IMG/VR virus record: IMGVR_UViG_3300033984_000473
Location: 91,393 to 155,392 of that record
DNA from: a virus
Length of the DNA stretch: 64,000 nucleotides
Reading direction: 5' to 3' (one strand)
Positions 4,977 through 60,738 of this stretch are shown piece by piece. The notes below the pieces were generated by a model that was not told the origin of the DNA, did not search any database, and saw only the letters and a list, made by a program, of their open reading frames with translations. Each line of letters starts with the position of its first letter. Within the stretch, counting starts at the first letter, position 1. Position numbers and translations under genes: made by a program.

Positions 4977-5012
4977 AGTACAAAGGTATGTAAAGTTTTT
5001 GGAATATCCTAA

Positions 5013-28391: not shown

Positions 28392-28395
28392 TGTA

Positions 28396-28428
28396 CAAAG
28401 GTACGATTAAATTAGTTAATATCCTAGA
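28396..28428 (-). promoter_or_regulatory. promoter for smpB, leaderless type
   Basis: tgtacaaaggtacgattaaattagttaatatcctag; ATG 3 nt after the -7 box. Confidence 0.55.
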
Positions 28429-29136: not shown

Positions 29137-29235
29137 TACATAGCGAGGGAATCGAACCCCCATCTCCGCAAGCGATTGGTACTGCATCTCACGATGTGCT
29201 CCCATTTCGGCACTCTACCACTGAGCTAGCTACAT
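29137..29235 (-). tRNA. tRNA-like gene, 99 nt, with an expanded central region
   Basis: Minus-strand read: acceptor ATGTAGC/GCTATGT (2 G-U pairs), D-arm GCTC-AGTGGTA-GAGT, T-arm GGGGG-TTCGATT-CCCTC. There are 50 nt between the D- and T-arms, containing GTGC..GCAC and CATC-GTGA-GATG hairpins. No canonical anticodon arm found by eye. Confidence 0.5.
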
Positions 29236-29342
29236 ATTCGGTTATACTATATGGTGGTCTATCACCTTAGCCTTTCGCTAAAACTGTTAATGTGTGCCTC
29301 ACTGGACTACTCAACCAATGTCGCTTTAATAGTATAACCTAG

Positions 29343-29413
29343 AAACTCATACTGGATTCGAACCAGTGTCTGCGGGCTCCACGCCCCCCGTGGTTCCACT
29401 CCACTAATGAATC
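29343..29413 (-). tRNA. tRNA, 71 nt, possibly Pro (UGG)
   Basis: Acceptor GATTCAT/ATGAGTT, D-arm GTGG-AGTGGAA-CCAC, T-arm ACTGG-TTCGAAT-CCAGT. Anticodon stem GGGGG/CCCGC has one mismatch; loop CGTGGAG. Confidence 0.6.
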
Positions 29414-29510
29414 AACTATCACCATGTCGCTCGGCAAAGCTAAACGTAATAGAAAGGATTATAACCGTCTGAAAGTTTGCCGACCTTCATGTTGCTATTC
29501 CCCAATTTTG

Positions 29511-29610
29511 TGCGAGAGGGTGGATTCGAACCACCGACACCTAGTCCCTAGTTGTTCCCTTGTACTTTGGGCTAAAGACCTTAGCGTTTACCAACTTCGC
29601 CACTCTCGCA
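29511..29610 (-). tRNA. tRNA-like gene, ~100 nt (type-II-like length)
   Basis: Perfect acceptor GCGAGAG/CTCTCGC, T-arm GGTGG-TTCGAAT-CCACC, 3-bp D-stem. The ~48-nt central region has no obvious 5-7-5 anticodon arm. Confidence 0.5.
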
Positions 29611-29722
29611 GTTTCTAGTCTTTCCCAGTGTCAACCATTGCAGTATGAAGAGTGCACATCGTCATTGCCAATTACCATAGTTTGTATACAGTGACCATAG
29701 GGCTTAACCGTTGGATTTCTTG

Positions 29723-29796
29723 TGGAAGTAACGGGACTCTAACCCGTGTTCTCGCAGCTACAGCCGCTTTATACTATACTATTGTACTATACTCCC
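29723..29796 (-). tRNA. tRNA-like gene, 74 nt, G3-U70 acceptor, anticodon arm replaced by a 5-bp stem plus tetraloop
   Basis: Acceptor GGGAGTA/TACTTCC (G3.U70), D-arm GTAC-AATAGTATA-GTAT, T-arm ACGGG-TTAGAGT-CCCGT. Central region GCGGC-TGTA-GCTGC; no 7-nt anticodon loop possible. Confidence 0.5.
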
Positions 29797-30034
29797 ATTT
29801 GATTACTACCAGCAACGAGTAACATATATCCGAATCATTAGCATCACGGAGCGTCTTTCTTTGTTACCCTACTCTCGGTGTCGCTAACGCCTCATGTCAA
29901 GTAGTAATCTTCGTCTTTCCGAATTGTCAAGATATTTTCAGACACATTGTCCAAGACTGCTTCTCAATCAGCTAAGCACCTTATACGTCAGAGGATTACG
30001 CTTAGATTTACCTCTCGAACAGGCTTCGTGGTTA

Positions 30035-30232
30035 GAACAGGAATCGAACCTGTGTGTAATTATAGTCGCTTAGTCGACACCATTTGACTGGGACATAAGG
30101 TTTTATTATTATTACGACTTTTATTGGGTTGATGAATGTTACACCTGTTTACACGACTTGTCCACTAACTCATCTCATCGGCAACCCATTACTTAACCTT
30201 GTTAATTAGCAATTCCATTCTGCCATCTAACC
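30035..30232 (-). ncRNA. candidate structured RNA with tRNA-like termini (~200 nt)
   Basis: 3' end has T-arm ACAGG-TTCGATT-CCTGT plus TCTAACC. The complementary GGTTAGA, followed by a D-arm-like GCAG-AATGGAA-TTGC, lies ~180 nt upstream. Could be an intron-containing or otherwise atypical tRNA. Confidence 0.3.
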
Positions 30233-30421
30233 ATTTGGGTGCTACCTTTAGCATCGGTCAACACACCCTCATGTTATTTTTGTTTCTGTATTAGGCTAGG
30301 AAACTCCTTTCTTTGGAAATAAGCCGTACTTTAATATGGTTTAACTTTTAACACCTCTATTTTGCAACCAGTTTCATAACTATCCAAACTGTTCTCCATA
30401 GTGGAGTACCAAAGCGACTTG

Positions 30422-30575
30422 TGGTAAGGATGGGACTCGAACCCACAATCTCTGGCTTATGACCACCAGCGAATACTTTTCTTTCTAATGCTAGGAACCT
30501 TGTTATCGGGTTACGTACCCCTCAAATTAAAAACTAAAATTTCAAACAAAAGAACTTCCAATCATTCTTCCTTAC
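30422..30575 (-). ncRNA. candidate structured RNA with tRNA-like termini (~150 nt)
   Basis: T-arm GTGGG-TTCGAGT-CCCAT plus CCTTACC at the 3' end; 6/7 complementary 5' strand with a D-arm-like AGAA..TTCT hairpin near 30540-30575; hairpin CTGG-N10-CCAG precedes the T-arm. Confidence 0.3.
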
Positions 30576-30749
30576 GAACGGTTTTGTTTAAGAACTTTTC
30601 CTCATAGCACCATGACAATTCATGGGTATTAAAACCGCCAAACTGGGGGTTAGCTATAAGTAAAAGCCATGTGATTAATTAGGACACCATTTCTGGGATA
30701 TCATTCTACTTTCTTTCAACCACATATTTAACTTAGTAGATAAGGCAAG

Positions 30750-30840
30750 ATTTGAACTTGCACCGCCAAGCTAGCCACGCTCGGATTGAGTGTTTAACGA
30801 GCTATCCCCAATTGCTCCAAGCCGTTATGTGTCTACTAAT
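30750..30840 (-). ncRNA. tRNA-like T-arm element; termini unresolved
   Basis: Perfect T-arm GCAAG-TTCAAAT-CTTGC on the minus strand; adjacent GCTCG-N14-CGAGC hairpin; acceptor pairing imperfect. Confidence 0.3.
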
Positions 30841-31235
30841 TTAAGATTCTCCCAGAACCACCACTTCTAATGAAGTCAGCTTAGCTTTTCCACCACTTAT
30901 CTAATTCTTGTCACCTATACAAATCGGTGAGTAGCGTACATGCACGAGAATGGAAGCATCTGCTCATCTCTTTAGGAACTTGTACTCCCTACTATTTACG
31001 GCATAGTTGCCAGTGCTACCTCTTAATTAACATACGTCATTTGTATTTGACTAATAGTGGATAGACATACCAAGTCTAATTGGTTTTGATTACACTCTCA
31101 GCCGCTAAGCTTTGTGTCACTTGCCAGACCTTACTGGCATTATTAGTGGTCCCACTATCTGTTAACCTCGAACAAAAAAAATCATCATGTGCAGAATCCC
31201 ACTGCAAGTGCCAGTTCATAAACTGACTAAATTAG

Positions 31236-31329
31236 CGTGGAGAAGAGAGGATTCGAACCTCTACAAGCCGCTAAGCTATCAGCCATGACCTTCCTTGGGA
31301 CTCGAACCCAACTTCCATCCAAAGCTTCT
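31236..31329 (-). tRNA. tRNA-like gene, 94 nt, with two T-arm-like hairpins
   Basis: Perfect acceptor GGAGAAG/CTTCTCC and T-arm AGAGG-TTCGAAT-CCTCT; an internal second hairpin TTGGG-TTCGAGT-CCCAA. Shares the motif agccgctaagct with a copy near 31100. Confidence 0.5.
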
Positions 31330-31517
31330 CCAGTAATTACACATCCATCAAGATTGGGATTCCGAAGTAAGTAACTTAATCCTACCAGTTAATCATACTC
31401 AACAACCATATTACTTCTTGTAGTAAACGCAATTTCTATACTAGCTTGCACAAAATCTAGTTATTTAACGTGCTTTATAGAATCTACTTGTTTGTCTTTC
31501 TATGCGTAATTATAATA

Positions 31518-40970: not shown

Positions 40971-41486
40971 TTAATGCCTATCAGCTGGCACTACATTTAT
41001 CTTGAAAGTTTTAATTCTTCCGCTTGAAATTAGCTTATCACCAAATGCTTTGAATATTGGAATATGTTCCAATCTATCATCCCATAGTTCAATCTCAGTA
41101 ACCTGTGGGTACTTATGTAGTAAAGATTCAATTGTTTTCATCTTAGCCACTTCTGTTGCACCACCTCTGTTGAAATGGTATTCATCAAACTCTAGGTTTT
41201 TGCTATCTAAGATTTCTTTAACTAGGTCAGTAAGTAGAACCATACGACCAGTAAGCATAACCATAACAGTTGATTGGTCTTGTTTTTCTACATTGTAAGC
41301 ATCAATGACCATTGGTACACTTGGCATGTCAAATATTTTCATATCTAAGCTTAGTGGTCTACCCCACCATCCTGGAAAAGGCCAATCTCTACCTGTCTGT
41401 TCTTTGTAATGTTTCTTACCAAATTCTGGTAATGGTGTATCAACCAGTGTTCCGTCAAAATCGAATATCGATAATTTTGTTTTCAT
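40971..41486 (-). CDS. HAD-superfamily hydrolase
   Basis: Motif I SIFDFDGTLVD. Confidence 0.6.
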   Translation of the reverse strand: MKTKLSIFDFDGTLVDTPLPEFGKKHYKEQTGRDWPFPGWWGRPLSLDMKIFDMPSVPMVIDAYNVEKQDQSTVMVMLTGRMVLLTDLVKEILDSKNLEFDEYHFNRGGATEVAKMKTIESLLHKYPQVTEIELWDDRLEHIPIFKAFGDKLISSGRIKTFKINVVPADRH

Positions 41487-46358: not shown

Positions 46359-46811
46359 TTACCCAATTATTTCTAAAATTTTATCGATACATGCTGCTTG
46401 TGTGTTGTGCAAAAGAGGTCTAGCTTCTTCTAGTGTTACCCATTTGTAACCATCCATTTCTGGAAAATTACCACGGGCATCTTCCACATCAGAATTACAC
46501 TTCAACTCAACAGCATCCCATTCAATCTTTGAATCAAAGTTTTCTAAACACACAAACGGATATAGTATCTTTCTTTTATGTGTATAGTTTACCGATTGCA
46601 AAGGGTAAACAGTAAACTTATTACTATCTTTTAAATTTAGATTGGTTTCTTCATAGGTTTCCCTAAAAGCACCTTCTAAAAAAGTCTCATTTTCTTCTAC
46701 CTTACCCTTTGGAATGCTGTAAAAATCTTCGGCATGATTTGTTGGATGACAAATCAACAGTTTTTTATCTTTTCTTATGATAAATAAACCAGCTGCTATT
46801 ACCTTTGCCAT
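46359..46811 (-). CDS. Nudix hydrolase
   Basis: Nudix box GKVEENETFLEGAFRETYEETNL. Confidence 0.75.
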   Translation of the reverse strand: MAKVIAAGLFIIRKDKKLLICHPTNHAEDFYSIPKGKVEENETFLEGAFRETYEETNLNLKDSNKFTVYPLQSVNYTHKRKILYPFVCLENFDSKIEWDAVELKCNSDVEDARGNFPEMDGYKWVTLEEARPLLHNTQAACIDKILEIIG

Positions 46812-47149
46812 TATAATAATGTTGCACCAACACTGTAATTGGTTAATTGCGTAGAACCGTTAGCATCAGCAACCATAATCATTGCTTCGCTAGTTATACC
46901 CATCATTTTAGATGGTTTAAGATTCATAACAAAAGGAAAGTTAAGTCCAACAAACGCATCTGGTTCAAAAATTGACCCTAAATTGGTTACGACTGTGTAT
47001 TCATCTTGTTCATTGATTCCAAATATAACGTTTAACTTCAAAAGCTTATCACTTTTTTCTACACGCTCAGCAGCAACTACATGACCGATACGTATTTCTA
47101 GTTTTGATTCTATCTCTAAAAATTCAGAGAATTCAATTTGTGGTTTCAT
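46811..47149 (-). CDS. hypothetical protein (112 aa)
   Basis: ORF in gene train. Confidence 0.5.
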   Translation of the reverse strand: MKPQIEFSEFLEIESKLEIRIGHVVAAERVEKSDKLLKLNVIFGINEQDEYTVVTNLGSIFEPDAFVGLNFPFVMNLKPSKMMGITSEAMIMVADANGSTQLTNYSVGATLL

Positions 47150-47753: not shown

Positions 47754-49349
47754 TTAAAATGTTGTAAACTCTCCGTTAATGAAGTTTATGTGTTGTGACC
47801 TTCCATCGTTATGGATAATCACATGTGATTGTAACCATGTGCTGGCCCCTTTATTATACCCAACTCTTAATTTGGTTGATGTTCCAACTGCCAGTGCTCC
47901 GTCTTTTCTTCCTGGACTATGGTAGTGACCTACGATAATCTTTGTGTTTAATTTACGGAACTGTAACAATGAACCACGACTTCCATTCGAACCAATATCG
48001 CCATGTTGTCCTAACTCCCAATCTTTAACCCTATATGTGGCACTTCTACCAAGAGTAATGAACTTAGGGAATTTCTCGTTGATGATACATGGGATAACAC
48101 CTTTTACATTGTAAGGGTCATTACCATATTGTTCTAACAACATATCAGACATTTTCATGTAAAGTCTTGAGTTCTTGTATGTTGGTTGTTTTTTCCAATC
48201 TTCATTCTTTAACCAACGGTCTAAGAAATCATCATGATTACTTCTAACAATCACAACGTTATCGAACTTAGCAAATGCATCCAATCCATCTAACATCAAA
48301 TCAATCTCTTTACCTAAGTCATTGGTTCCAGCAACCTCTTTACCATATTGGATAAAAGGGTCTTTCATTTCATGGTGGCTAATAGAATTTCCATCAAAAA
48401 CGTCATGAAGAATCACGTGTTTTGGTTTTAACGAATCTAACAATCCCATTGTTGAATCCAAAACTTCTTGGTCATGGTGTCCGTAGTGAATATCACCTAG
48501 AACAGCAGCAGCGATAGTGTTTAAACCACTAATACTTCCACCTTCAACTCTATAATATAAATCACTAAAGTTACCAGTTTTATCATCGGCAGTTACCTGT
48601 CTAACAAAGAATGTTTCATCATCTTTTATTTCAACAATAACAAAACCAAACGTGTGGTGAAACTCACCAGTCTTACCAGACTTAGAATCAGTATAGTTTT
48701 TCTTGGTTACTGAACCTGTGGTAAGCATAATCTTAGGTTTGTTACCCTCTAGTACTGGTATCATTTCCATTTGTACCTTTGGACTACCAAAAATAGATGA
48801 ATTAACACCACTTAATGCTTGTAATCCAGTCATAGGGTTAACCGCAGTAGCTTGTATCTTGATATCTGATAGTATAGAAACGTACTTATGTATGTCATGT
48901 CTATTGGCATCTAGGTATTTTACCACTTCATCAGCCCAAAACTCTTCATTTTCTTGTTCATTTGACCATATACTAGTCGGATTCTTATACCTACCAGCAA
49001 TTACATGGACATCTGCATTGATATATTCAGCATAGGCTTCAATATTCTTAAGGAAACCCTTATGTACTGGTGTGTTATTCTGTGCCCAAGTGATGATAAA
49101 TCGTTTTTTAGTACCATCATGTACCTTAGCTTTAGCTTTTACGTACTGTTCTGGTTCGATTTCAGTCTTTTCTTTGAAATTTAATTTTTTAAACCATTTT
49201 CTTACAGTTCTTTCTGAAAGATTAAACTCATTACCTAATTTTATTGCTAATCGTTCAACAGTTAAATTATTTTCTAACCTATTATCATATTCTAATTTAA
49301 AACGTGAAATTATTTCATCGGTTAAATCTTTAAATTTAAATTTACTCAT
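47754..49349 (-). CDS. calcineurin-like metallophosphoesterase with N-terminal HTH-like domain
   Basis: GDIHYGHHD, HDVFDGN, IVRSNHDDF metal-binding motifs; N-terminal LSERTVRKWFKK. Confidence 0.7.
   Translation of the reverse strand: MSKFKFKDLTDEIISRFKLEYDNRLENNLTVERLAIKLGNEFNLSERTVRKWFKKLNFKEKTEIEPEQYVKAKAKVHDGTKKRFIITWAQNNTPVHKGFLKNIEAYAEYINADVHVIAGRYKNPTSIWSNEQENEEFWADEVVKYLDANRHDIHKYVSILSDIKIQATAVNPMTGLQALSGVNSSIFGSPKVQMEMIPVLEGNKPKIMLTTGSVTKKNYTDSKSGKTGEFHHTFGFVIVEIKDDETFFVRQVTADDKTGNFSDLYYRVEGGSISGLNTIAAAVLGDIHYGHHDQEVLDSTMGLLDSLKPKHVILHDVFDGNSISHHEMKDPFIQYGKEVAGTNDLGKEIDLMLDGLDAFAKFDNVVIVRSNHDDFLDRWLKNEDWKKQPTYKNSRLYMKMSDMLLEQYGNDPYNVKGVIPCIINEKFPKFITLGRSATYRVKDWELGQHGDIGSNGSRGSLLQFRKLNTKIIVGHYHSPGRKDGALAVGTSTKLRVGYNKGASTWLQSHVIIHNDGRSQHINFINGEFTTF
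49190..49222. repeat. direct repeat copy 1 (ttaaaccattttcttacNgttctttctga)
   Basis: 31/32 identical to the copy at ~50288-50320; the two copies bracket the endonuclease-like gene. Confidence 0.6.
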
Positions 49350-50241
49350 TCATTTTGATTTTTAGTATTTTCGTTATTTTATCTATTTTTTCATTATATT
49401 TAATAATAATTAATTTTATTTTATTATTTTTACAATATTCTTTTTTAATTATATCTGTTTTATTTTGTTCTTTAAAACGTTTTTCACCGCCAAAGTATTC
49501 AATAGCTTTATAATGTTGAATACCGTTAAATTCAATACATGTATTATAATCTGGTAAATAAAAATCAAATGGTAAAACATTTTTATTTTTACAGTCATCA
49601 AATTTATGTTGAGCTATGAATTTAATAGAATATTTGTTTAATAAATCTCTAATTTTATTTTCACCTTTAGATTCTTTACAAAAAGGACAATTTTGGCCCT
49701 TTAAATGATTTTGTGGTGTTTGTTTAAATTCACTATGAATTGGACAAATAACCACTACCTTTTTATCAAAACCTAAATAATCAACTAATGAATAATCAAA
49801 TTTATCCCCATGAACTAATTTAGCTTTTTGAATAAATTCTAATGTTTTTGTTTTTCTTTTTACAAAACTACATAATTCACAATCAGAACCTTTTAAATGA
49901 TTCGATGGTGTTTGTTCAAACCCACCATGAGTTGGACAAATTATTTTAACTTTAGTATCATAATTAACATAATCAACCAAAGAATAATCAAATTTATCTC
50001 CATGAATTAATTTACTTTTTTTAATAAATTCATTAATAGATAACTTTTGTTTATTTTGTGAACATTTAGAACATCCATTACCACTTAAATGCCCACTAGC
50101 CCTTTGTTCAAACTCACCATGAGCTGGACAAATTATTTTTACTTTAAACTTACTTTCAATATAATCAATCAATGAATAATCATATGTATCACCATGAACT
50201 AATTTAGCTTTTTCAATAAATTTTAAATTTTTATCTATCAT
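49342..50241 (-). mobile_element. putative homing endonuclease: three zinc-ribbon repeats plus C-terminal Vsr/DUF559-like PD-(D/E)xK nuclease
   Basis: Threefold repeat KAKLVHGDKFDYSLVDY...KVKIICPxHGxFEQxPxNHLKGxxCxxC; C-terminal LPFDFYLPDYNTCIEFNGIQHY...IKLIIIKY; flanked by a duplicated 32-nt segment. Confidence 0.55.
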
Positions 50242-50263: not shown

Positions 50264-50431
50264 CTAGATAAAACTAAAAAGACAAACTTTAAACCATTTT
50301 CTTACTGTTCTTTCTGATTTACCAAAGAATTTAACCAAAATATTCATTCTATCATCCCATGATAAAGTTTTATCTTGATAAACACCCCTAGCATAGTCAA
50401 TTTGTTCTGTAGTTAATTCTTTAAAATCCAT
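50264..50431 (-). CDS. small ORF (~55 aa) homologous to the N-terminal HTH-like domain of the 47754..49349 product; possible gene remnant
   Basis: My translation: MDFKELTTEQIDYARGVYQDKTLSWDDRMNILVKFFGKSERTVRKWFKVCLF...; compare LSERTVRKWFKK in the large gene. Coordinates +/-3. Confidence 0.4.
   Translation of the reverse strand: MDFKELTTEQIDYARGVYQDKTLSWDDRMNILVKFFGKSERTVRKWFKVCLFSFI
50288..50320. repeat. direct repeat copy 2
   Basis: See copy 1. Confidence 0.6.
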
Positions 50432-50508
50432 TTTATTATTTTAAAACTTGTTATTTTATACAAAAATACGAATTTAATTGTATATTTGCAACATTCATAC
50501 CTAATTAT

Positions 50509-51279
50509 TTACAATTTAGGTATAAGATTTATTAAAAAATCTCTATCACTAGTGAATATAGGTGTTTCTAAGGCTACCCAGTTACGTCTAACAGCAGCTG
50601 CTTCACCACTATAGTCAATATCTGCTACTCTTTTGATAACTACCCCACGTTTATACTTGGTTTTATAGTCATTCCAATTGATACCCTTCTCATTAAACAA
50701 CATTTCCTGTTTATCACTACCAGATTTACCCTCTAATAGTTTGTGTGAAAAGTTAGCAGATGCGGCCATACTAATACTATTTCTAGTACAGTCTTGCTGT
50801 CTGAATATCATAGCGTTAACCATTTCATCAACCGTAGGTACTTGGAATACACGAGCATCAAAGAAAGCTAATTTGTTTAAGCTTTCAGCTAACCCTTCCA
50901 TACCTTGCATCGTTGACCTTAGATGCCTTAACTGGTTGAACTTAGCAGTTGCCAAAGAGGCAGCAATACTTGTCATCTTTTGTACGCTGTAATCAAACCA
51001 CGCACTAGTTTCAAGTGTGTCATAATCGCACAACACCACGCTGATTTCGTCAGATTGTGTGTAAGCAAACTTTGCACCTTGAATGTTCTCACATAAGAAG
51101 ATTGCGGTTGCATCCATGTCATCGCTAAACCCATCATCGAATGGTTTGTTTAAGTTTTTAGTGAATTTAGAAAATCCTTTACCATCAAGTCTAATGATTG
51201 TAATTGTTCTTCTATTCAAAAAAGTTTTGGTTCTGTTTTCGTAGAATTCTTTCATTCTATCACCTAAAGATAAAGTCAT
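50509..51279 (-). CDS. Thg1-like protein (tRNA-His guanylyltransferase family, 3'-5' nucleotidyl transferase)
   Basis: TIIRLDGKGFSKFTK, FAYTQSDEISVVL and GINWNDYKTKYKRGVV align with Thg1 VVRIDGKKFHEFSK, AFGESDEYSF and GINYNN..FKKGS. Confidence 0.7.
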   Translation of the reverse strand: MTLSLGDRMKEFYENRTKTFLNRRTITIIRLDGKGFSKFTKNLNKPFDDGFSDDMDATAIFLCENIQGAKFAYTQSDEISVVLCDYDTLETSAWFDYSVQKMTSIAASLATAKFNQLRHLRSTMQGMEGLAESLNKLAFFDARVFQVPTVDEMVNAMIFRQQDCTRNSISMAASANFSHKLLEGKSGSDKQEMLFNEKGINWNDYKTKYKRGVVIKRVADIDYSGEAAAVRRNWVALETPIFTSDRDFLINLIPKL

Positions 51280-51280
51280 T

Positions 51281-51904
51281 TTATTTTTTGTTTAGTTTAA
51301 GAATGCAAGTAATTGCTATTCTTGGTTTTGTTGTTGAATTTTCGTTTGAATAATGAACCGAGAACTGATTATGTACAACGCAATCACCATACTTCAACTC
51401 TACTGGTGTAAAGTCTTCCATTGGAATTTCTGATGTGTATTGTGACATACCAGTCTTACCAGTTCTTGTTCTTAGATTTGACCCACAATTTTCGTGATTG
51501 ATTATTTCTCGTTTACCATCCCAATCAGCATAAAACATCGTTGAAGTCGAAACATCAACGTCATGCAATGGAATCCAGAAGGTTAGAATGTCATCATCAT
51601 TGTTATCAAAGTAAGCACCATCTTGATGTGGTGCTGTAATCTTGTAATCTGGATGTTTGATAAAATACTGCATGTTAATAACTTCACCATCATAACCCAA
51701 TACATTTTTTATGTATTTGGCTAACTCCATAAACAGGTGATAACCATGGCAGTTCTGGATTTGTTTTACGTCACCATTCTTGGTTCTGAAAACATTTTCG
51801 TCTTTACATTGCAAAGCAATTGTTTCAAAATCTCGACTGAAAAGGTCTAACAATTCTGTATTAAAAGCTTTTTTTAGTATTTCATATCCTTTTTCCATTA
51901 CCAT
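51281..51904 (-). CDS. PhyH-like 2OG-Fe(II) oxygenase
   Basis: APHQDGAYF (HxD) plus downstream His; fold-typical spacing. Confidence 0.6.
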   Translation of the reverse strand: MVMEKGYEILKKAFNTELLDLFSRDFETIALQCKDENVFRTKNGDVKQIQNCHGYHLFMELAKYIKNVLGYDGEVINMQYFIKHPDYKITAPHQDGAYFDNNDDDILTFWIPLHDVDVSTSTMFYADWDGKREIINHENCGSNLRTRTGKTGMSQYTSEIPMEDFTPVELKYGDCVVHNQFSVHYSNENSTTKPRIAITCILKLNKK

Positions 51905-52089
51905 GAGTCATAATCGGTTATATCCTTTTCAATTCCATAGTCTTCAAATCTTACCTTTACGTTAAGACCGATACCAGTATAAGAAATTAGATAAGAAACC
52001 TTACCAAGCTTTCCATGTAAAAAATTTACACTTTCTTCTAGCTTTGCAAGTGTTTCCACTTCTTTTTCGTTTAAGTTAAAGTCAGCCAT
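51898..52089 (-). CDS. small hypothetical protein (63 aa)
   Basis: Short ORF tightly coupled to neighbours. Confidence 0.4.
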   Translation of the reverse strand: MADFNLNEKEVETLAKLEESVNFLHGKLGKVSYLISYTGIGLNVKVRFEDYGIEKDITDYDSW

Positions 52090-53081
52090 TAAAATCTTTC
52101 TTTTTTAAGCCCTTCGTAGCTTGTTTTACTATTGATTGCACTAACAGCTAAACCGATTTGTTTTGCCATGCTAATAACATTTAGTTTATCATTACCAAAG
52201 ATACCATTGTAATCTGTTGGTTTTCTTAATGAATCACTAATAACCAATTCAGTTAGTACTGAATTTTCAATACGAGCCAAAGCTGGTCCAGAACAGATAC
52301 CATGACTGATGATTGCTCTTACACTCTTGGCACCAGCTTCCATAATAACTTCAGCGGCTTTGCAAAGTGTTCCAGCAGTATCAACCATATCATCTAAGAT
52401 GATTACGTTCTTACCACTAACATCACCAATGATAACCATATCATCAATAACGTTGGCTTGTTTACGAGTTTTATCCAACATAACATAATTGATTGAAATG
52501 TCATGGTAGTTAGCCAATTGGTCTTTCATACGTTTAACACGTTTACCAGAACCAGCATCTGGGCCACACAAGATTGTATCTTCATCATATATCGAAGCGA
52601 TGTACGAATCAAAAACATTTTTACCTTCTAAGTGTGTAACTGGGATATTGAAAAACCCTTGAATTTGGTCAGCATGTAAATCAAATGTGATAACACCTGT
52701 TGCTCCACGATGCTCAATCATTTCAACCATAACCTTGGCACCGATAGGTCCACGTGATTGGTCTTTCTTGTCTTGACGAGCGTATGGGAAGTAAGGTAAG
52801 ATTGGAATAATCTCTCTAGCGGCTGCACGTTTGGCGGCATCTATCGCTAGATTTAACTTTATGATTTCATCTGAATTATTAGGGCTAGACAAGATATAAA
52901 CTCGCTTGCCTCTAATTGATGATTCAAAATCCACACATAACTCACCATCAGAAAATTTCTGACTGTTGATTATGTCTAGCTTTACTTTCTCTTTTATCTT
53001 TGAATTGTTATTGATAAAATCAATAACACTATTGGCTAAATCTTCTCTACCATCTAACGCCACTAATACTGAATCATTCAT
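52089..53081 (-). CDS. prs: ribose-phosphate pyrophosphokinase (PRPP synthetase)
   Basis: HADQIQGFF, PYARQDKK and PRPP-binding DDMVDTAGT motifs; start moved to MNDSVLV past the promoter. Confidence 0.9.
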   Translation of the reverse strand: MNDSVLVALDGREDLANSVIDFINNNSKIKEKVKLDIINSQKFSDGELCVDFESSIRGKRVYILSSPNNSDEIIKLNLAIDAAKRAAAREIIPILPYFPYARQDKKDQSRGPIGAKVMVEMIEHRGATGVITFDLHADQIQGFFNIPVTHLEGKNVFDSYIASIYDEDTILCGPDAGSGKRVKRMKDQLANYHDISINYVMLDKTRKQANVIDDMVIIGDVSGKNVIILDDMVDTAGTLCKAAEVIMEAGAKSVRAIISHGICSGPALARIENSVLTELVISDSLRKPTDYNGIFGNDKLNVISMAKQIGLAVSAINSKTSYEGLKKERF

Positions 53082-53098
53082 AGTTATATATTTTTTAA

Positions 53099-53130
53099 CA
53101 AAGGTACATAAAAATTTTTGAATAAACAAA
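53099..53130 (-). promoter_or_regulatory. promoter (-33 TTTG / -7 TACCTTTG) for prs
   Basis: taacaaaggtacataaaaatttttgaataaacaaatg. Confidence 0.6.
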
Positions 53131-53136
53131 TGTTTA

Positions 53137-53310
53137 TTATTCTTTATTACTTTTTCTATTAAATAAATAAATAACACCAGCAATCAAAGATGCCGTTGCC
53201 AAGTATTTCAATACACTAACGAATAAAAATATTCCAAAGAAAATACCTTGTAAGACGAACAATACTAGTAATACTGCTATAAAAATTCCGATTAATTTTA
53301 CTGTTTTCAT
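53137..53310 (-). CDS. small membrane protein
   Basis: Hydrophobic; start trimmed to MKTVK. Confidence 0.4.
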   Translation of the reverse strand: MKTVKLIGIFIAVLLVLFVLQGIFFGIFLFVSVLKYLATASLIAGVIYLFNRKSNKE

Positions 53311-54309: not shown

Positions 54310-55062
54310 TTATTTGTCGTTTTTATCGTCTCCGATTGCATGCGTTAATAATCTATTTACTACTTCTGTTACACCTTCAACTGCTGATTTCTTTACGTAC
54401 TCAACCTTAAGCCCATAATTATCTAAATAATGCATCGGCTCTGGGTCGATGTAAATTATTTGACAATCGGTTCTCACATTTTGTAACATATCCAAAGTAT
54501 AACCAATTTGTAAGCTTGTACCAATTATTAATAATATATTGGCATTACGAACTGCTTGATATGCTCTGTCAACATGTTTTGGATATTCACCAAACCATAC
54601 AATATCTGGTCTAAGTTGTGAATCAAATTTATCATCTTTATCACCAATGTTGATGTCGTTGTATCCTATGTCTATTGATTCGCAAACATCAGAAAAAGGA
54701 CCTCGACTACCACCATAACAACCTTTGGCTTTGGTTAATTCACCATGCAAGTGTAATATATTGGTTGAGCCACCTCTTTCATGTAAATCATCAACGTTTT
54801 GAGTTGTGATAGTTACATCATATTCTTCTTCCAAGGAAGCCAACGCTGTGTGAGCAGCATTCGGGTGAACATCTGGTAATTGTCGTCTTCTCTCGTTGTA
54901 GAAGTCCAATACCATAGCTCTATCTTTTTTCCAACCTTCGATAGTTGCTACGTCCTCAACCTTATGGTTATTCCATAGGCCATCTTTGACATCTCTAAAG
55001 GTGAGGATTCCAGATTCTTTGCTGATACCAGCACCACTAAAAATTACAATTTTCTTTTTCAT
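54310..55062 (-). CDS. Sir2-family NAD-dependent deacylase / ADP-ribosyltransferase
   Basis: GAGISKESGILTFRD, QNVDDLHERGGS, IIGTSLQ sirtuin motifs. Confidence 0.85.
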   Translation of the reverse strand: MKKKIVIFSGAGISKESGILTFRDVKDGLWNNHKVEDVATIEGWKKDRAMVLDFYNERRRQLPDVHPNAAHTALASLEEEYDVTITTQNVDDLHERGGSTNILHLHGELTKAKGCYGGSRGPFSDVCESIDIGYNDINIGDKDDKFDSQLRPDIVWFGEYPKHVDRAYQAVRNANILLIIGTSLQIGYTLDMLQNVRTDCQIIYIDPEPMHYLDNYGLKVEYVKKSAVEGVTEVVNRLLTHAIGDDKNDK

Positions 55063-55361
55063 TATCTATTGTTTAATGTTCTTAAACCAGCAAAAAAGAT
55101 TTTGATACCCTTGATTATAATACCTAACCCACCAACATAACCGAAGTTATACCAGAAACCGTTATTGTTTATAGCGTAGATAGCAATGTTATCTGAGAAA
55201 AGACTACAAATGAATGCTGGGAACATAATCATACCATGCCAAACTCCACCCCAAAATCCATAAACTTCTTGATTTGGGTCAAGGAATTGTATATGTGCAA
55301 CATCGGCACATCCAGTTAATAACAACAGCACAAATGCTGCTAAGAATATTTTTGTTTTCAT
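55062..55361 (-). CDS. membrane protein (99 aa)
   Basis: Signal and TM segments. Confidence 0.45.
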   Translation of the reverse strand: MKTKIFLAAFVLLLLTGCADVAHIQFLDPNQEVYGFWGGVWHGMIMFPAFICSLFSDNIAIYAINNNGFWYNFGYVGGLGIIIKGIKIFFAGLRTLNNR

Positions 55362-55567
55362 ATTTTTTTGTTTTTTATTATATCAAATGTTAAGTTATTA
55401 TGTATCTTGATTTGGTCTGACCTATAATGTTTAATATCGCCACCGTCACATAAAACAATGCACCATATATCATTTTCAAATGTTCCACCATTTGTAACAT
55501 AAATAGCATAACCTTCTTTATCTTCTTCAACAATCACAGGTATTGGAGTTTTAAATTCTAACATCAT
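55358..55567 (-). CDS. small hypothetical protein (69 aa)
   Basis: Short ORF. Confidence 0.4.
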   Translation of the reverse strand: MMLEFKTPIPVIVEEDKEGYAIYVTNGGTFENDIWCIVLCDGGDIKHYRSDQIKIHNNLTFDIIKNKKI

Positions 55568-55926
55568 AGTGAATCTTTTATTTTTTTCAAACGAGCTTCA
55601 ACCCGTCTGTTTACTTCTTCTTCAATAACTCTACTAGTACTTAAAGAAACAATCTTTTCCGTGATACCGTTGATTTTATCATCAACATGTCTAATCATGC
55701 TACTTTCAATTTGTTTTAGTCTGAAGTTAACCCTTTCAGTCAACGCTGATTTTGTTTCTTTTGTTATACCTTCTGCGAAGAAATCTAATTCATCGTTTAG
55801 ATACTTGGTTAATATCTCTTTGACTTCACTATTAGATAATAAAACTGTTTCATCTGAAGTAGTTTTAATCTTCATGTTATCAAATTTATTTGAGTTGTAC
55901 GTTAATAAATCACTAATCCTTGCCAT
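55564..55926 (-). CDS. hypothetical protein (120 aa)
   Basis: ORF in gene train. Confidence 0.5.
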   Translation of the reverse strand: MARISDLLTYNSNKFDNMKIKTTSDETVLLSNSEVKEILTKYLNDELDFFAEGITKETKSALTERVNFRLKQIESSMIRHVDDKINGITEKIVSLSTSRVIEEEVNRRVEARLKKIKDSL

Positions 55927-56356
55927 TATAGTTAGCAGTTAATAAATTTAAAACCAAACCCCAATCATTCTCTGGGTCAAATCCAGCTTTGTCCTCAAAC
56001 AAAACGTTCATGTAAGGTTTTTTATCATAACATCCATATCCGTTGGTTTGTGTCGGAACCTCTGGGTTCTCATTCACATACTTGAAATGAATATCATTCT
56101 TTTTGAATAATTCCAAATACTCATCAACCTCGTTAGGGTGTGAACACGTATAAAGGAACATTACAATATCTGGTCGTTTGCTGATAAATTGTAACGTTTC
56201 TATAGCCAAAGGATAAAATTCATCGGGTGTACTACCAACAGTGTAATTAGGTTTAAGAATTGTACCATGAATATCAAAGGCCCAAAATGTTCGGTCCCAG
56301 TTTCTAGTAATTTTGTACTCGAAGTGATTCGTTAGAATCGATTTAGTTATACTCAT
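55913..56356 (-). CDS. hypothetical protein, possibly a degenerate HAD-like fold
   Basis: AFDIHGTI resembles HAD motif I with the second Asp replaced by His. Confidence 0.4.
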   Translation of the reverse strand: MSITKSILTNHFEYKITRNWDRTFWAFDIHGTILKPNYTVGSTPDEFYPLAIETLQFISKRPDIVMFLYTCSHPNEVDEYLELFKKNDIHFKYVNENPEVPTQTNGYGCYDKKPYMNVLFEDKAGFDPENDWGLVLNLLTANYNGKD

Positions 56357-56358
56357 AG

Positions 56359-56538
56359 TTATGTTTCAAAAATGTTTCTAAAATCTAAAATGTTCATTGA
56401 GAAATATGTGTCTTCTACTTTGAAGAACACAGCACTTCCAATATATGTTAGGTTAGTTGGTTGCCATTCTTTGACTACGTTGAGTGGGAACGTTTGTTCA
56501 CCTTCGTTGGCAACGCCTACTTTAACAAGGTCATTCAT
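56359..56538 (-). CDS. small ORF (~59 aa), not in ORF track
   Basis: My translation: MNDLVKVGVANEGEQTFPLNVVKEWQPTNLTYIGSAVFF...; the promoter element at 56569-56602 lies ~30 nt upstream. Confidence 0.4.
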   Translation of the reverse strand: MNDLVKVGVANEGEQTFPLNVVKEWQPTNLTYIGSAVFFKVEDTYFSMNILDFRNIFET

Positions 56539-56568
56539 TAATGCTAAATTTAAAAATTGTTATTTAAC

Positions 56569-56602
56569 AAAGGTACTAATACTTTTGTTAAAAAGCAAGA
56601 GA
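56569..56602 (-). promoter_or_regulatory. promoter (-33 CTTG / -7 TACCTTTG)
   Basis: taacaaaggtactaatacttttgttaaaaagcaag. Confidence 0.55.
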
Positions 56603-56627
56603 AACCTAAAAATTATAGTAAACTGTA

Positions 56628-57077
56628 TTACGGTACATAGTTTACAATCGTAACATACTCACCACGAAGTTCTTCGTCAATGATTGCTTCAATTGTAGCC
56701 CAATCACCACCAGCTAACCCAGCACCAATCTTTGGTAAACCAAATGTTTTACCAGAAAATTTAGCTTTCATCAACTTCAACGCAGAACGCAAAGCATCAT
56801 AGTCTAAATCCATCTGACCACTTCGTCTTCCAGTATAGTCATATTGACCATACAAGTTAACAACTATTGGTTTTGTAGCTTCACTATATGAAATAGTACC
56901 TAGCTTGTTAATATCCCCTTGAACTGTCTTGCAGTCAGCAGCGTAAGCATCTGGGAATTTATGTTTGATTTGCGGGGCAATACCAGCACCCATAGTGTTG
57001 AAACAATTACAACAGTGCCCAATTACTTCGTAGTTTTCGGCATCCTTAACAAGGTCACCATCGATATATCTAATCAT
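56628..57077 (-). CDS. macro-domain protein (ADP-ribose binding or hydrolysing)
   Basis: VIGHCCNCFNTMGAGIA and FGLPKIGAGLAGGDW macro signatures; start trimmed to MIRYIDGD. Confidence 0.8.
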   Translation of the reverse strand: MIRYIDGDLVKDAENYEVIGHCCNCFNTMGAGIAPQIKHKFPDAYAADCKTVQGDINKLGTISYSEATKPIVVNLYGQYDYTGRRSGQMDLDYDALRSALKLMKAKFSGKTFGLPKIGAGLAGGDWATIEAIIDEELRGEYVTIVNYVP

Positions 57078-57591
57078 TTTGTTTAAATTTTTTGTTTGCC
57101 ATTTCAATACTAGCAGCGATTGTGTCAACTAAAGTATTATAAATGATTGGGTTATATAATTCGTTTTCTTTGGCAACAGCTTCCCACATGATGTCTAAAT
57201 AACCCATACGATAAGCATCGTCTGGTCTACCATAAATCATTTTTTGTGGTTCTCTACCTTGCCAGTAACCAAACTCCATATTGGTTGTTAGAGCAATAAG
57301 TTCTCTAGTTCTTGGTATCCAAAATAAGACACAATCAGCTTTTTTAAGACCATTATATTCCCACATAGGAATCCAAGCCTTGTCTTTATCTGATTCAGTC
57401 TTAGAAGTAAATTCTGGGATGATTAAATCACCTTCAAATCCTTGACGTTTAAATTCTTCAATAGCCTCAAAACGCCATGATGTTAAATGAGGTTGATTTC
57501 CTCTTACAGTTGGTCCAGCTAAGAAAACTGAAGGTCTGTTTATCGACCTTACAGTATCTTCTGATTCTTCATATCTATGTACTTGTACCAT
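57070..57591 (-). CDS. nucleoside 2-deoxyribosyltransferase-like (NDT-fold) protein
   Basis: SVFLAGPTVRG and ADCVLFWIP...ALTTNMEFGYWQG. Confidence 0.5.
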   Translation of the reverse strand: MVQVHRYEESEDTVRSINRPSVFLAGPTVRGNQPHLTSWRFEAIEEFKRQGFEGDLIIPEFTSKTESDKDKAWIPMWEYNGLKKADCVLFWIPRTRELIALTTNMEFGYWQGREPQKMIYGRPDDAYRMGYLDIMWEAVAKENELYNPIIYNTLVDTIAASIEMANKKFKQND

Positions 57592-58088
57592 TATGAATTT
57601 TTGTTAAATGTTTCTCTTACTCGCATAATGGCTTCACCTAACCAGTTTTTGCCTTGCCATTTGCTTTTGTCTTCGATGTTTCTGTGGTCAACACCCATTC
57701 CAATACCCCAAATCTTGTCGTATGGACTAGCCTCAACAATTTCTTTGTCATCAGTTTTCATTAACTCAACCTTTAGACTAGGATTTTGTGTGAATTTAGC
57801 CAAGTTACCTTGATAAACAAATTCTCTACACACTTCATTCCATCTGTCTGTGTTAAAGTTTTTAACTGTACGACCCAAAGATTTTTGGTCAACTGGTCTA
57901 GAGGCAGCCATGATAGCATCGTGACTCTCTTGGTCGTTGAATGTCAATGCTTTCATCGCCATCATGTATTGCTCACAGCAATTATATTCGATTCCAGCAA
58001 TGCTGAATTTAGACGAATACCACTGACTGTAGATTCCATTCCAAAAGAATACGAATTCATCAGTTGTTTTTTCGTTTGTATTTTTCAT
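57591..58088 (-). CDS. NADAR (DUF1768 / YbiA-like) family protein
   Basis: FVFFWNG, YNCCEQYMMAMKALTFND, VMYQGNLAKFTQNPSLKVELMKT and DKIWGIG match the NADAR signature. Confidence 0.85.
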   Translation of the reverse strand: MKNTNEKTTDEFVFFWNGIYSQWYSSKFSIAGIEYNCCEQYMMAMKALTFNDQESHDAIMAASRPVDQKSLGRTVKNFNTDRWNEVCREFVYQGNLAKFTQNPSLKVELMKTDDKEIVEASPYDKIWGIGMGVDHRNIEDKSKWQGKNWLGEAIMRVRETFNKNS

Positions 58089-58089
58089 T

Positions 58090-58479
58090 TTAAATAGTTT
58101 TTTTAGTCGTGCTTCTATGAAATTCAATCAATTCCACACTTTTTATTTCTAACCCTTTGGTATATGTGAAAGTTTCAAGTCTTTCTTTTATCATATCCAA
58201 GTGTTCCTGTGTTGGTTCTTCATCAAAGAAAATCACAACACCTTTATTGGTACCACCATCTATATCGTTACCCAACGCTACTGGTCTATACGTACCATTA
58301 TCATCAGCTTCATTTCCGATAACATCATCGAAAAATTCTGCAACAGTTTCATCGATTAATTCGTCACCAACTTCACAATCACCAACGTGACCAGTTAGGT
58401 GTGCACACATTTCTCTTTCAAAGTTTCCAGCGTACTGATTAGTTTCAATCAATACAGCAAATTTAGCTCTCATTCCCAT
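58090..58479 (-). CDS. hypothetical protein (129 aa)
   Basis: ORF in gene train. Confidence 0.5.
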   Translation of the reverse strand: MGMRAKFAVLIETNQYAGNFEREMCAHLTGHVGDCEVGDELIDETVAEFFDDVIGNEADDNGTYRPVALGNDIDGGTNKGVVIFFDEEPTQEHLDMIKERLETFTYTKGLEIKSVELIEFHRSTTKKTI

Positions 58480-59084: not shown

Positions 59085-59096
59085 GTTTTTCTTTTT

Positions 59097-60662
59097 TTAA
59101 ATTGTTATTTTTGCTCTTTCTCTAATTTCTTCGAATGTGTAATCAACAAGGATTTCACCATTTCTAAATACTTCAACCAATTCATCTGTTACTGAATCAA
59201 AGTCAGCATCCATTGATGTAACGGTTCTGTATGTACCATCATCATTCTTAACTAATTTAAGCTTTCCTTGCTTAGATTTTTTGAATGATTTTGTAATGTT
59301 ACCATCAGCATCCATTTCAGTTGGTGACTTAACAATATTTCTTTCTTCACCATTAACAATTGCATAACATGCTTTGGTTGCGAAGTTTTGCGTATCTCTG
59401 TTGATATCTGCTTGTAGCAATTTACCACCCATACCCAACGCTAAGTTCTCTGGAGAGATTTTCAATTCATCTAACATTGCGTAGATTTCTCTGATTGAAT
59501 CCAAATTTACACCATCACCTTGAATAACACGTACTTGTGGTGGCAATACCTTGTAACCTTTTTCATTGGTTGTGTAACCAAATTTATCGAATAAGATGTT
59601 GAAGATTTCTTTTAAAGTCATCAATACATCACCAGAATCTGGGCGTATAACCAATTGATTCCCTGGAGTTGCTGGTCTTGATAAAACCAATTCTTTCAAC
59701 TCAGTTCCCCAATACTCAGAACATGCTCTGAAAATGTTAAATGAATCTGATACACACGCAACCAATCCAGTAGGATAAGTTTTCAATACACGCATCATAA
59801 GTGCTAACTCACCTTCTTCACCGTTTAGGGTCATGATTGAGTGCTCTGTTGCTGGGATTGATAAACCATACACAGTTTCTGTGTTATAAAGGTCACGGAT
59901 TAATTTTGATGCTACTACGGTGTCTGAACCTCTAAAGTTCACCAAGTGAGCAGAACCACCAATCTTAGCTGATTGTACACTTGATACACCACGGAAACCG
60001 AAGTCATTCAATACGAAATCAACAAGGAAGTCGATAAGGCCAGCATCATACGCTGTTCCTTTTACGAATGCGGCAGTAACGATTTTTCTTACTTCTCTAG
60101 AAAGTGAAGCAACGGTAATCGGATACCAAACTTGAAGCAATATTGACTCTAAGAAGTTGGTCAACCATGCACATTCTGGGTCAAGACTTTCAATTACGAA
60201 TAACACATTTTTAGTGTTAACGATAGTTCCTTCTGGAACCGCCTTGATGCTGATAGGTAATTTCCCATCATATTTGTCAACGATGTAATCAAACTTGCTT
60301 CTATCGAATACACCATCACGACCAAAGATACCTAATTCATTACCTAACATATCGTTAGCTTCATCAACTTCTTCTTTTGTAATAGCAATACCCTCTAAGT
60401 ATTGTTTAAGTACAATCTGTAAACCATAGAATACGGTTTCTGAAAATTTACCACCTCTTGATTCCATGTATGAAACCATCTTGGTCATTTCAGAACCATA
60501 GAATTTGTGGTGTGAATATTTGTAACCATCGGAACATAAGACCAAGTTATCTGGCTTAGTGATGATTTTAGTAAGGTATTTTTGCATACCTTCAATACTA
60601 GACCAGTCTTTATTTTGAATGGCTGTCGCTAAATTCGTAGCTAATTGTGTTTGTAAACTCAT
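59097..60662 (-). CDS. nadV: nicotinamide phosphoribosyltransferase (NAMPT / NadV)
   Basis: CSDGYKYSHHKFY, FGFRG, GSDT, SIPATEHS, VIRPDSGD, QGDGV conserved NAMPT motifs; start moved to MSLQT past the promoter. Confidence 0.9.
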   Translation of the reverse strand: MSLQTQLATNLATAIQNKDWSSIEGMQKYLTKIITKPDNLVLCSDGYKYSHHKFYGSEMTKMVSYMESRGGKFSETVFYGLQIVLKQYLEGIAITKEEVDEANDMLGNELGIFGRDGVFDRSKFDYIVDKYDGKLPISIKAVPEGTIVNTKNVLFVIESLDPECAWLTNFLESILLQVWYPITVASLSREVRKIVTAAFVKGTAYDAGLIDFLVDFVLNDFGFRGVSSVQSAKIGGSAHLVNFRGSDTVVASKLIRDLYNTETVYGLSIPATEHSIMTLNGEEGELALMMRVLKTYPTGLVACVSDSFNIFRACSEYWGTELKELVLSRPATPGNQLVIRPDSGDVLMTLKEIFNILFDKFGYTTNEKGYKVLPPQVRVIQGDGVNLDSIREIYAMLDELKISPENLALGMGGKLLQADINRDTQNFATKACYAIVNGEERNIVKSPTEMDADGNITKSFKKSKQGKLKLVKNDDGTYRTVTSMDADFDSVTDELVEVFRNGEILVDYTFEEIRERAKITI

Positions 60663-60691
60663 ATTGTTAAATTTTTTGTTCTTATTTGATA

Positions 60692-60723
60692 CAAAGGTAC
60701 TAAAAGTTTTTTGGATAACCAAA
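60692..60723 (-). promoter_or_regulatory. promoter (-33 TTTG / -7 TACCTTTG) for nadV
   Basis: gatacaaaggtactaaaagttttttggataaccaaat. Confidence 0.6.
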
Positions 60724-60738
60724 TATTATATCGATTAT

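Follow-up and report, generated by a model that had tools for sequence, protein, structure and literature searches.

A Thg1-like 3′-5′ nucleotidyltransferase gene next to a PhyH-family oxygenase gene in an uncultured phage genome: probable tRNA 5′-end repair and an apparently unrelated neighbour

Introduction

Do two abutting phage genes, one coding for a Thg1-like protein (TLP) and the other for a PhyH-family Fe(II)/2-oxoglutarate (2OG) oxygenase, act together on tRNA, or are they simply found side by side? The question is raised by a 64,000-nt stretch of viral DNA, IMG/VR record IMGVR_UViG_3300033984_000473, positions 91,393–155,392, the whole of which is referred to here as the window. An earlier note on this DNA had proposed that the two genes form a tRNA repair and modification pair within a larger phage programme for keeping or remodelling the tRNA pool. 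To our knowledge, no polymerases other than the Thg1-like proteins are known to synthesise in the 3′-5′ direction. What bacterial and phage TLPs do physiologically is still unproven, and the locus described here adds a well-preserved phage TLP from a genome with many genes for translation rescue and anti-defence. The window is AT-rich (~33% GC), with nearly every gene on the minus strand and minimal spacers, and both open reading frames (ORFs) are present exactly where the earlier note had placed them, with a single nucleotide between the PhyH stop codon and the TLP ATG:

50509..51279, minus strand: TLP, a bacterial-type 3′-5′ nucleotidyltransferase of 256 amino acids, assigned from PF04446, PF14413, phrog_4717 and alignment with PDB 4KGK.
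51281..51904, minus strand: compact PhyH-family Fe(II)/2OG oxygenase of 207 amino acids, assigned from PF05721, an HxD...H...R site and an AlphaFold2 (AF2) model.

Our reading, which we think reasonably likely, is that in the course of infection the TLP restores tRNA 5′ ends that are damaged or incomplete; the PhyH protein would be an unrelated small-molecule oxygenase.

The Thg1-like protein

The conserved blocks by which the ORF was assigned to the Thg1/TLP family are readily found, with RLDGKGFSKF from residue 30, QSDE from 75 and GINWN from 199, and the profile searches that had been proposed as a check bear the assignment out. The Pfam Thg1 profile (PF04446) matches over all of its 130 positions (E=2.5e-30, 105.5 bits, cutoff 29.2), as does phrog_4717, 'tRNA-His guanylyltransferase', at E=3.4e-80; Thg1C (PF14413) passes marginally with 27.9 bits against a cutoff of 26.3, and the alignment with the Bacillus thuringiensis TLP (BtTLP) reaches residue 250. 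No NCBIfam model matched the TLP. The Pfam and PHROG scores, like that of PF05721 for the PhyH ORF, lie far beyond chance.

Among solved structures BtTLP (4KGK) is by far the top match, with an E-value of 3.3e-54 across residues 4–250 and ~50% identity, whereas the eukaryotic Thg1 structures score weakly (Candida 4e-13, human THG1 2.2e-9). Using the BtTLP numbering of the structure paper (PMC3701042), mapped through the 4KGK alignment, residues E14, R30, D32, K45, D77, E78, R143 and R160 of the window protein correspond to E12, R28, D30, K43, D75, E76, R131 and R147 of BtTLP, and the BtTLP counterparts of E14, R30, D32, D77, E78, R143 and R160 are described as catalytic or nucleoside triphosphate (NTP)-binding (PMC3701042). 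The metal-site carboxylate triad, the loss of which would have spoken against the assignment, is intact: D32, D77 and E78 align with D30, D75 and E76 in BtTLP and with D29, D76 and E77 in human THG1. The eukaryotic HINNLYN motif is replaced by TRNSISM, for which BtTLP has SKNSISM, and among 70 viral TLP homologs S76, D77, E78, K101, R143, R160 and N167 are invariant and D32 is conserved in at least 90%. Because the family matches, the BtTLP alignment, the residue correspondence, the TRNSISM motif and the invariant residues all agree, we conclude from sequence that the ORF encodes a bona fide bacterial-type TLP, closer to the characterised TLPs than to eukaryotic Thg1.

By homology, the protein should carry out ATP- or GTP-dependent 5′ activation and templated 3′-5′ addition (PMC3701042, PMC4820378, PMC6471195). 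It would activate an RNA 5′-monophosphate with ATP or GTP and then add nucleotides in the 3′-5′ direction with the 3′ strand of the tRNA acceptor stem as template, such that 5′-truncated tRNAs would be rebuilt; it may also be able to add G-1 to tRNA-His.

The earlier note had not regarded TLPs as common in phages, and this view needs revision. The family has a dedicated PHROG, and a tblastn search with the window TLP returned 163 of 50,697 INPHARED records, every match being below 60% identity; these include Bacillus phages (46), Prevotella Lak phages (15), Caulobacter phages (13), Mycobacterium phages (11) and many jumbo phages, and most of the proteins are annotated as tRNA-His guanylyltransferase. 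IMG/VR returned 65 TLP loci, and a collection of 5.8 billion proteins contains at least 7,934 TLP clusters at E≤1e-20. Thg1 was also listed in 2021 among the RNA-repair enzymes of jumbo phages, as an enzyme restoring tRNA 5′ ends (Iyer et al. 2021, PMC7824862). The window TLP is a further member of a phage family that is already known and annotated but is uncharacterised.

The PhyH-family oxygenase

The neighbouring ORF is indeed a PhyH-like Fe/2OG oxygenase, as had been noted, matching PF05721 with E=3.7e-11 and 44.2 bits (cutoff 22). The active-site residues are H93-x-D95, H184 and R195, with the arginine 11 residues beyond the distal histidine as in PhyH-family enzymes, and the triad and the 2OG-binding arginine line up with those of EvdO2 and PHYHD1. 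An alignment of 33 homologs (alignment A1) shows D95, H137, R145, R147, H178 and H184 to be invariant, and H93 and R195 to be conserved in at least 90%. The family also has an invariant basic loop, NxRTRTGKTGxS, at residues 143–154, where the model confidence is lowest and which may act as a substrate lid. The AF2 model (pLDDT 90.8) has a double-stranded β-helix (DSBH) fold and a Foldseek probability of 1.00 to PhyH-family structures.

The more telling question is what these relatives do. The note had pointed to nucleic-acid demethylases and hydroxylases as users of this fold, and the searches lead elsewhere. A profile of the family finds EvdO2 at 6e-9 and PHYHD1 at 1.5e-7; the leading Foldseek matches in PDB are proline hydroxylase H11, EvdO2, PHYHD1, MysH, SnoN/K, EctD and GriE, and PtlH is also returned among the small-molecule and free-amino-acid oxygenases recovered by the sequence, profile and fold searches. 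There is no Pfam match to AlkB, TET, JBP or TYW5, none of them is among the PDB sequence matches, and none is in the best 50 of 437 Foldseek PDB matches (E≤0.001), these best 50 being small-molecule or amino-acid oxygenases. We have rejected a nucleic-acid oxygenase, as neither the sequence nor the fold searches support it, and by analogy with these relatives its most likely substrate is a small metabolite and not tRNA.

Homologs of the PhyH protein were not detectable in cultured phages by tblastn against INPHARED. BFVD offers as its closest viral structural relative a 2OG oxygenase from Hokovirus HKV1, a giant virus (A0A1V0SFH7; 27% identity, TM 0.85), and in metagenomes the compact (~205 amino acid) family comprises ~100 clusters, several of them on contigs of 236–376 kb.

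Synteny of the locus

Comparison with related loci (given L numbers where particular ones must be told apart) reveals a conserved order of genes: Sir2, (DUF3127), orf53315, a phosphoribosyl pyrophosphate (PRPP) synthetase-like (PRPS-like) gene, a variable slot, the TLP gene, a small ORF, a T5 A1-like gene, phrog_1238 and a tRNA-binding protein gene. The members of this block in the window, other than the TLP and PhyH genes, include the following:

52089..53183, minus strand: PRPP-synthetase-like gene (Prs or Adps), the conserved upstream anchor of the slot; Pribosyltran_N E=5e-29, with Pribosyl_synth and Pribosyltran.
51898..52089, minus strand: small ORF of 63 amino acids in the variable slot upstream of PhyH, taken from the ORF listing, with no Pfam or PHROG match.
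49342..50241, minus strand: HNH-type homing endonuclease gene, an insertion that separates the TLP block from the A1-like gene; phrog_559 E=1.8e-77.
47754..49349, minus strand: T5 A1-like 'DNA transfer protein' gene, the conserved downstream anchor of the block; phrog_1745 E=1.4e-151.
46811..47149, minus strand: stand-alone tRNA-binding domain protein gene (Trbp111 / MetG C-terminal type); PF01588 E=5.4e-17, TIGR00399 metG_C_term E=1e-20.

The TLP gene is present at every syntenic locus while the genes of the slot change. The distance from the PRPS-like gene to the TLP gene ranges from 73 to 1,933 bp, and the slot holds unrelated small lipoproteins, membrane peptides, a LAGLIDADG-like ORF, or nothing at all; PhyH occupies it only in the window and in L001–L003, L069–L075 and L086–L087. 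Over a wider set of 72 TLP loci PhyH is found in 7, and in none of 12 cultured TLP phages inspected does it lie near the TLP gene, so that the co-occurrence of the two genes, which had been put forward as a check of the pair, is not maintained between divergent genomes; most syntenic relatives, too, have no PhyH.

These observations bear directly on the proposal that the two genes form a module, with the TLP rebuilding tRNA 5′ ends and the oxygenase hydroxylating or demethylating tRNA nucleotides. The genes are on the same strand and 1 nt apart; every PhyH-carrying member of the lineage has PhyH upstream of the TLP gene and within 0.6–1.9 kb of it; and the more distant locus L077 has both genes within 4.4 kb. 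However, the 1-nt spacing is uninformative because the genome is so tightly packed, close spacing being the norm throughout, and at L077 (PhyH 57% identical) the TLP gene is 3.6 kb upstream, in the reverse order and with 13 ORFs in between. Against the module, at least 11 syntenic TLP loci lack PhyH and have unrelated small ORFs or a LAGLIDADG gene in the slot, and at least 50 other viral TLP loci lack it as well. PhyH directly adjoins the TLP gene in the window and in L069–71, but elsewhere one (L001, L072/73, L086/87), three (L002) or four (L074/75) ORFs intervene, and L086/87 are instructive in that their TLP is 99% identical to that of the window, yet an extra ORF separates it from PhyH. 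More distant PhyH homologs lie near DnaB (L076, 42% identity) or elsewhere (L078, 47%), with no Thg1 within 6 kb, and there are no PhyH-Thg1 fusions among the longer homologs. Added to this are the independent exchange of TLP alleles described below and the absence of AlkB-, TET-, JBP- or TYW5-like similarity noted above. On the grounds of synteny, the settings of the distant homologs and the lack of fusions we have rejected a conserved TLP–PhyH module, and we regard the two-gene tRNA model as very improbable. Synteny inherited by descent, in a cargo slot of variable content, accounts best for the adjacency; the PhyH gene would then be an independent accessory gene in a hypervariable position.

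The PRPS-like anchor scores 300.9 bits with NCBIfam NF002320 (cutoff 297), likely starts at an ATG at 53081, and is either a true Prs or an ADP-ribose-pyrophosphorylating Adps as in NARP1. By eye, the 63-residue ORF in the slot is similar to the small ones found there in L004, L038 and L044, and relatives of it recognised by eye (~65–85 amino acids) recur in the slot between the PRPS-like and TLP genes; a recurring predicted membrane peptide of 42–46 amino acids with a conserved 'DGWGWL' motif is found in the slot of L004, L039, L044, L047, L062 and L067. The tRNA-binding protein gene is kept 3–4 kb downstream of Thg1 in nine syntenic loci (among them L004–L006, L038, L039, L067, L074 and L077).

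Mosaicism of the locus

Two deeply divergent TLP alleles (~50% identity) occupy one and the same position with no correlation with their flanks, a pattern of allele swapping. For example, L069 compares with the window at 82% identity in PhyH and 91% in the A1-like protein, and at only 52% in the TLP, while in L072 the corresponding values are 76%, 74% and 86%. Homing endonuclease genes are abundant in the block and may drive its mosaicism. The window has the HNH gene, which is missing at the corresponding position in most syntenic loci; in L086, a near-identical strain, a LAGLIDADG ORF (4246–5196) interrupts the PRPS-like gene; there is a GIY-YIG gene nearby; in L062 (6001–6382) the TLP breaks off after about residue 105, with an HNH fragment following it; and the slot of L005/L006 is counted with the homing-endonuclease-rich sites of the block.

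Host and transcription signals

The closest cultured-phage relatives of the A1-like protein are Maribacter and Flavobacterium phages (45% identity), and contigs carrying related loci span 250–376 kb, which together suggest that the window derives from a jumbo phage of Flavobacteriia. A megablast search with positions 46–56 kb of the window found no near-identical phage in INPHARED. A scan for transcription signals separating the genes gave no excess over the shuffled expectation with a sigma-70 consensus that is probably inapplicable to this host. The 77-nt spacer 3′ of the TLP gene (50431–50509, minus strand) holds TATTTTTG, which by eye fits TAnnTTTG, the Bacteroidota -7 promoter consensus; this promoter-like match is consistent with a Flavobacteriia host.

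NAD+ and RNA-repair neighbourhoods of TLP genes

If PhyH is not a regular companion of the TLP, which genes are? Every ORF lying 6 kb or less from the TLP gene in the 72 loci was clustered, with no prior bias. The most recurrent neighbours are PRPS-like genes (33 loci), Macro (22), NDT2-like genes (18) and NAMPT, directly downstream (17), followed by HAD_SAK_2 (13), YqeY, between TLP and NAMPT (11), and NADAR (~10). The PRPS/NAMPT-type loci fall into three TLP sequence clades and probably represent one phage superclade, because the three clades share flank genes; other TLP clades lack such neighbours. The TLP gene lies between the PRPS-like and NAMPT genes, often with a YqeY-like gene right after it, in L008, L012–L015, L019–L021, L024–L027, L031, L045, L063 and L065.

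The window itself agrees with this picture, the surroundings of its TLP gene being centred on NAD: PRPS-like, Sir2, Macro, NDT-like, NADAR, NAMPT, YAcAr SLOG and NMNAT/Nudix-like genes. All but the first of these form an NAD+/ADP-ribose island at 54310–63559, its NDT-like member being a nucleoside deoxyribosyltransferase-like gene. This island also contains a gene for a glutamate-synthase-domain protein (61080–62576), and an ADP-ribosylglycohydrolase gene is present at 1328–2104. The NAMPT gene of the island is:

59097..60662, minus strand: NAMPT/Namat-type nicotinamide phosphoribosyltransferase gene (NAD+ reconstitution); NAPRTase E=2.4e-40, NAMPT_N E=2.7e-27.

The cultured Bacillus phage FADO (L079) lends this association independent support: in it the TLP gene is 2.2 kb, or four small ORFs, downstream of a PRPS-like and NAMPT-like pair. 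This pair is the NARP1 operon, deletion of which sensitises FADO to DSR2 (bioRxiv 10.1101/2024.02.11.579819); we found no mention of a linkage between TLP and NARP1 in the literature examined. Elsewhere the neighbours are of a different kind: the TLP gene of Vibrio phage D69 lies amid genes for a CCA-adding enzyme, a nucleotidyltransferase, an RNA ligase, Pnk and a phosphoesterase, a CCA-adding enzyme gene is near the TLP gene in Aeromonas phage 4L372D and in CcrColossus, and a Pnk gene is near it in mycobacteriophage KashFlow. Through guilt by association, the NAD+ reconstitution genes (FADO and this clade) and the tRNA-end repair genes (unrelated phages) support the view that TLPs of phages form part of toolkits for RNA repair or anti-defence.

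One could argue from the same associations that in this clade the TLP acts on a non-canonical substrate tied to the NAD+/ADP-ribose island or to the odd tRNA-like RNAs of the phage, with restoration of RNA 5′ ends after NAD-dependent damage and maturation of insertion-bearing tRNA-like elements as examples. The repeated finding of the TLP gene flanked by PRPS-like and NAMPT genes and in the company of Macro, NADAR and HAD_SAK_2, its proximity to NARP1 in FADO, the unusual tRNA-like array of the window (below) and the broad RNA recognition of TLPs (PMC6471195) would all fit. The NAD link may equally be the clustering of accessory genes in one superclade together with one coincidence (FADO), as other TLP clades do not have it, and base pairing is complete in the acceptor stems of the tRNA-like elements, which therefore require no 5′ editing. 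We also know of no biochemical link between NAD+ chemistry and Thg1, and consider a substrate of this kind, in either of its two forms, distinctly unlikely.

We give a similarly low probability to the broadest interpretation of these neighbourhoods, that the TLP is an integral part of an NAD+-reconstitution and ADP-ribose counter-defence island in this superclade and reverses 5′-end damage inflicted by an as yet unknown host defence. Were it correct, tRNA or RNA 5′ ends would be the target of such a defence, perhaps by way of NAD-dependent chemistry; PhyH would neutralise a small-molecule immune signal or metabolite; and the exchange of two divergent TLP alleles would be an arms-race footprint.

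tRNA and translation genes of the window

The tRNA-like array, RNase R, IF-3 and SmpB to which the earlier note had drawn attention are all present in the window, together with a putative RNA-repair phosphatase:

27948–28391: SmpB, E=1.5e-52.
29137..31331, minus strand: tRNA/tRNA-like array, candidate substrates, from Rfam RF00005 and ARAGORN.
38460–40379: RNase R-like protein, RNB E=1.7e-109.
40971..41486, minus strand: HAD_SAK_1 phosphatase ('Swiss-army-knife' RNA-repair HAD); PF10307 E=4.7e-15, phrog_415 polynucleotide kinase E=1.4e-6.
42406–42900: IF-3.

The array lies in a 2.4-kb ORF-free stretch between the SmpB and metallophosphatase genes (27948–29119) and an SPFH gene (31560). Rfam RF00005 gives four matches of 40–42 bits and one of 25.8 bits. 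ARAGORN in its default mode reports only a tRNA-Pro(UGG), with G33 in place of U33; in intron mode it reports two 99-nt elements, a tRNA(UUA, ochre-suppressor anticodon) and a tRNA-Pro(GGG), with insertions of 23 and 28 nt at 37/38. Further T-arm motifs of the GGTTCGA type can be seen by eye near 30440, 30755 and 31310, and no tmRNA was recognised beside SmpB except for a 10.7-bit fragment at 30036–30084. Two candidate explanations for the presence of the TLP were considered and rejected: that phage tRNAs need 5′ editing, as the acceptor stems of the elements in the window are fully paired, and that the TLP gene is physically linked to tRNA genes, which are within 6 kb of it in only 5 of 54 related loci, none of them tRNA-His. 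The similarity of a 157-residue ORF at 41896–42369 to the T4 Gp23 major capsid profile is confined to the first ~50 profile positions (E=4e-12); this ORF is an N-terminal fragment-like gene amid translation-related genes.

The same search is pertinent to the possibility that the TLP serves tRNA-His identity, adding G-1 to phage or host tRNA-His rather than repairing 5′ ends in general. Nearly all phage records annotate the family as tRNA-His guanylyltransferase, TLPs add G-1 opposite C73 in vitro (PMC6471195), and the jumbo-phage review names histidinyl tRNA specifically (PMC7824862), but no tRNA-His gene was found in the window, nor any within 6 kb of the TLP gene in the 54 related loci. In bacteria, moreover, G-1 is normally genome-encoded, and we judge this possibility to be unlikely.

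Proposed role of the TLP

Taking these observations together, we favor a general role in tRNA 5′-end repair, with PhyH as an unrelated oxygenase. The TLP gene would be a stably retained part of an island that is accessory and probably expressed early, in a large jumbo-phage lineage of the Flavobacteriia type; this island also appears to carry genes for NAD+ reconstitution (PRPS-like, NAMPT, NMNAT/Nudix), for ADP-ribose processing (Sir2, Macro, NADAR) and for predicted translation and RNA-repair helpers (tRNA-binding protein, HAD_SAK phosphatase, IF-3, RNase R, SmpB). In vivo the TLP most likely keeps the tRNA pool functional during infection, probably countering host damage to tRNA. The tRNA-pool programme that had been suggested for this genome therefore survives in part: a repair or counter-defence role is plausible in view of the CCA-adding enzyme, RNA ligase and polynucleotide kinase genes that neighbour TLP genes elsewhere, but PhyH drops out as a partner.

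Several points weigh against this role. Among characterised host defences we know of none whose specific action is to trim the 5′ ends of tRNA; no RNA ligase, Pnk or CCA-adding enzyme was found among the larger ORFs scanned in the window, only the HAD_SAK_1 phosphatase; and tRNA genes are, as noted, scarce near TLP genes. We found no experimental or biochemical characterisation of any phage TLP in the literature searched, and it is for this reason that we infer its substrate and role from homology and gene neighbourhood. Within the close lineage, finally, PhyH if present is always in the slot upstream of the TLP gene, and because of this constant position some room is left for a lineage-specific functional link between the two.

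Two leads from this locus are the more useful: TLP genes recur in neighbourhoods of NAD+ reconstitution and RNA repair, and deeply divergent TLP alleles replace one another at a single position. TLPs accompany classic tRNA-repair enzymes in unrelated phages, and both a large clade of aquatic jumbo phages and FADO place the TLP gene in or next to NAD+ reconstitution operons, which are proven anti-defence systems; FADO is also genetically tractable.

Comparison with known systems

The window PhyH protein shares with EvdO2, PHYHD1, proline hydroxylase H11, SnoK/SnoN, EctD and MysH the DSBH fold, the HxD...H triad and the 2OG-binding arginine (Foldseek E ~1e-11). It differs from the EvdO2-type enzymes in being shorter (207 amino acids as opposed to 245–310, at 14–19% identity) and in having its own invariant basic loop, N143-R-T-R-T-G-K-T-G-x-S154.

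The window TLP most resembles BtTLP (PDB 4KGK/4KGM): both proteins have the carboxylate triad, the arginines that bind NTPs, the lysine of the activation step and a motif of the SKNSISM type. It is of similar size (256 amino acids, compared with 245 in the PDB chain), but is phage-encoded and has a short insertion at about residues 120–135. With human THG1 (PDB 3OTB) it has in common the palm fold family and the catalytic D/D/E; unlike the human enzyme it lacks the HINNLYN anticodon-recognition motif and is predicted to be template-dependent rather than to carry out non-templated G-1 addition. The phage TLPs of phrog_4717, for instance those of Bacillus phage FADO (gp72), Vibrio phage D69 and Staphylococcus phage PMBT8, belong to the same family, and members from cultured phages are 38–50% identical to it. 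The window TLP differs from the cultured-phage TLPs in its host lineage, which is probably Flavobacteriia, and in having a PhyH neighbour, which is seen only in this uncultured lineage; the FADO TLP resembles it in having PRPS-like and NAMPT genes nearby.

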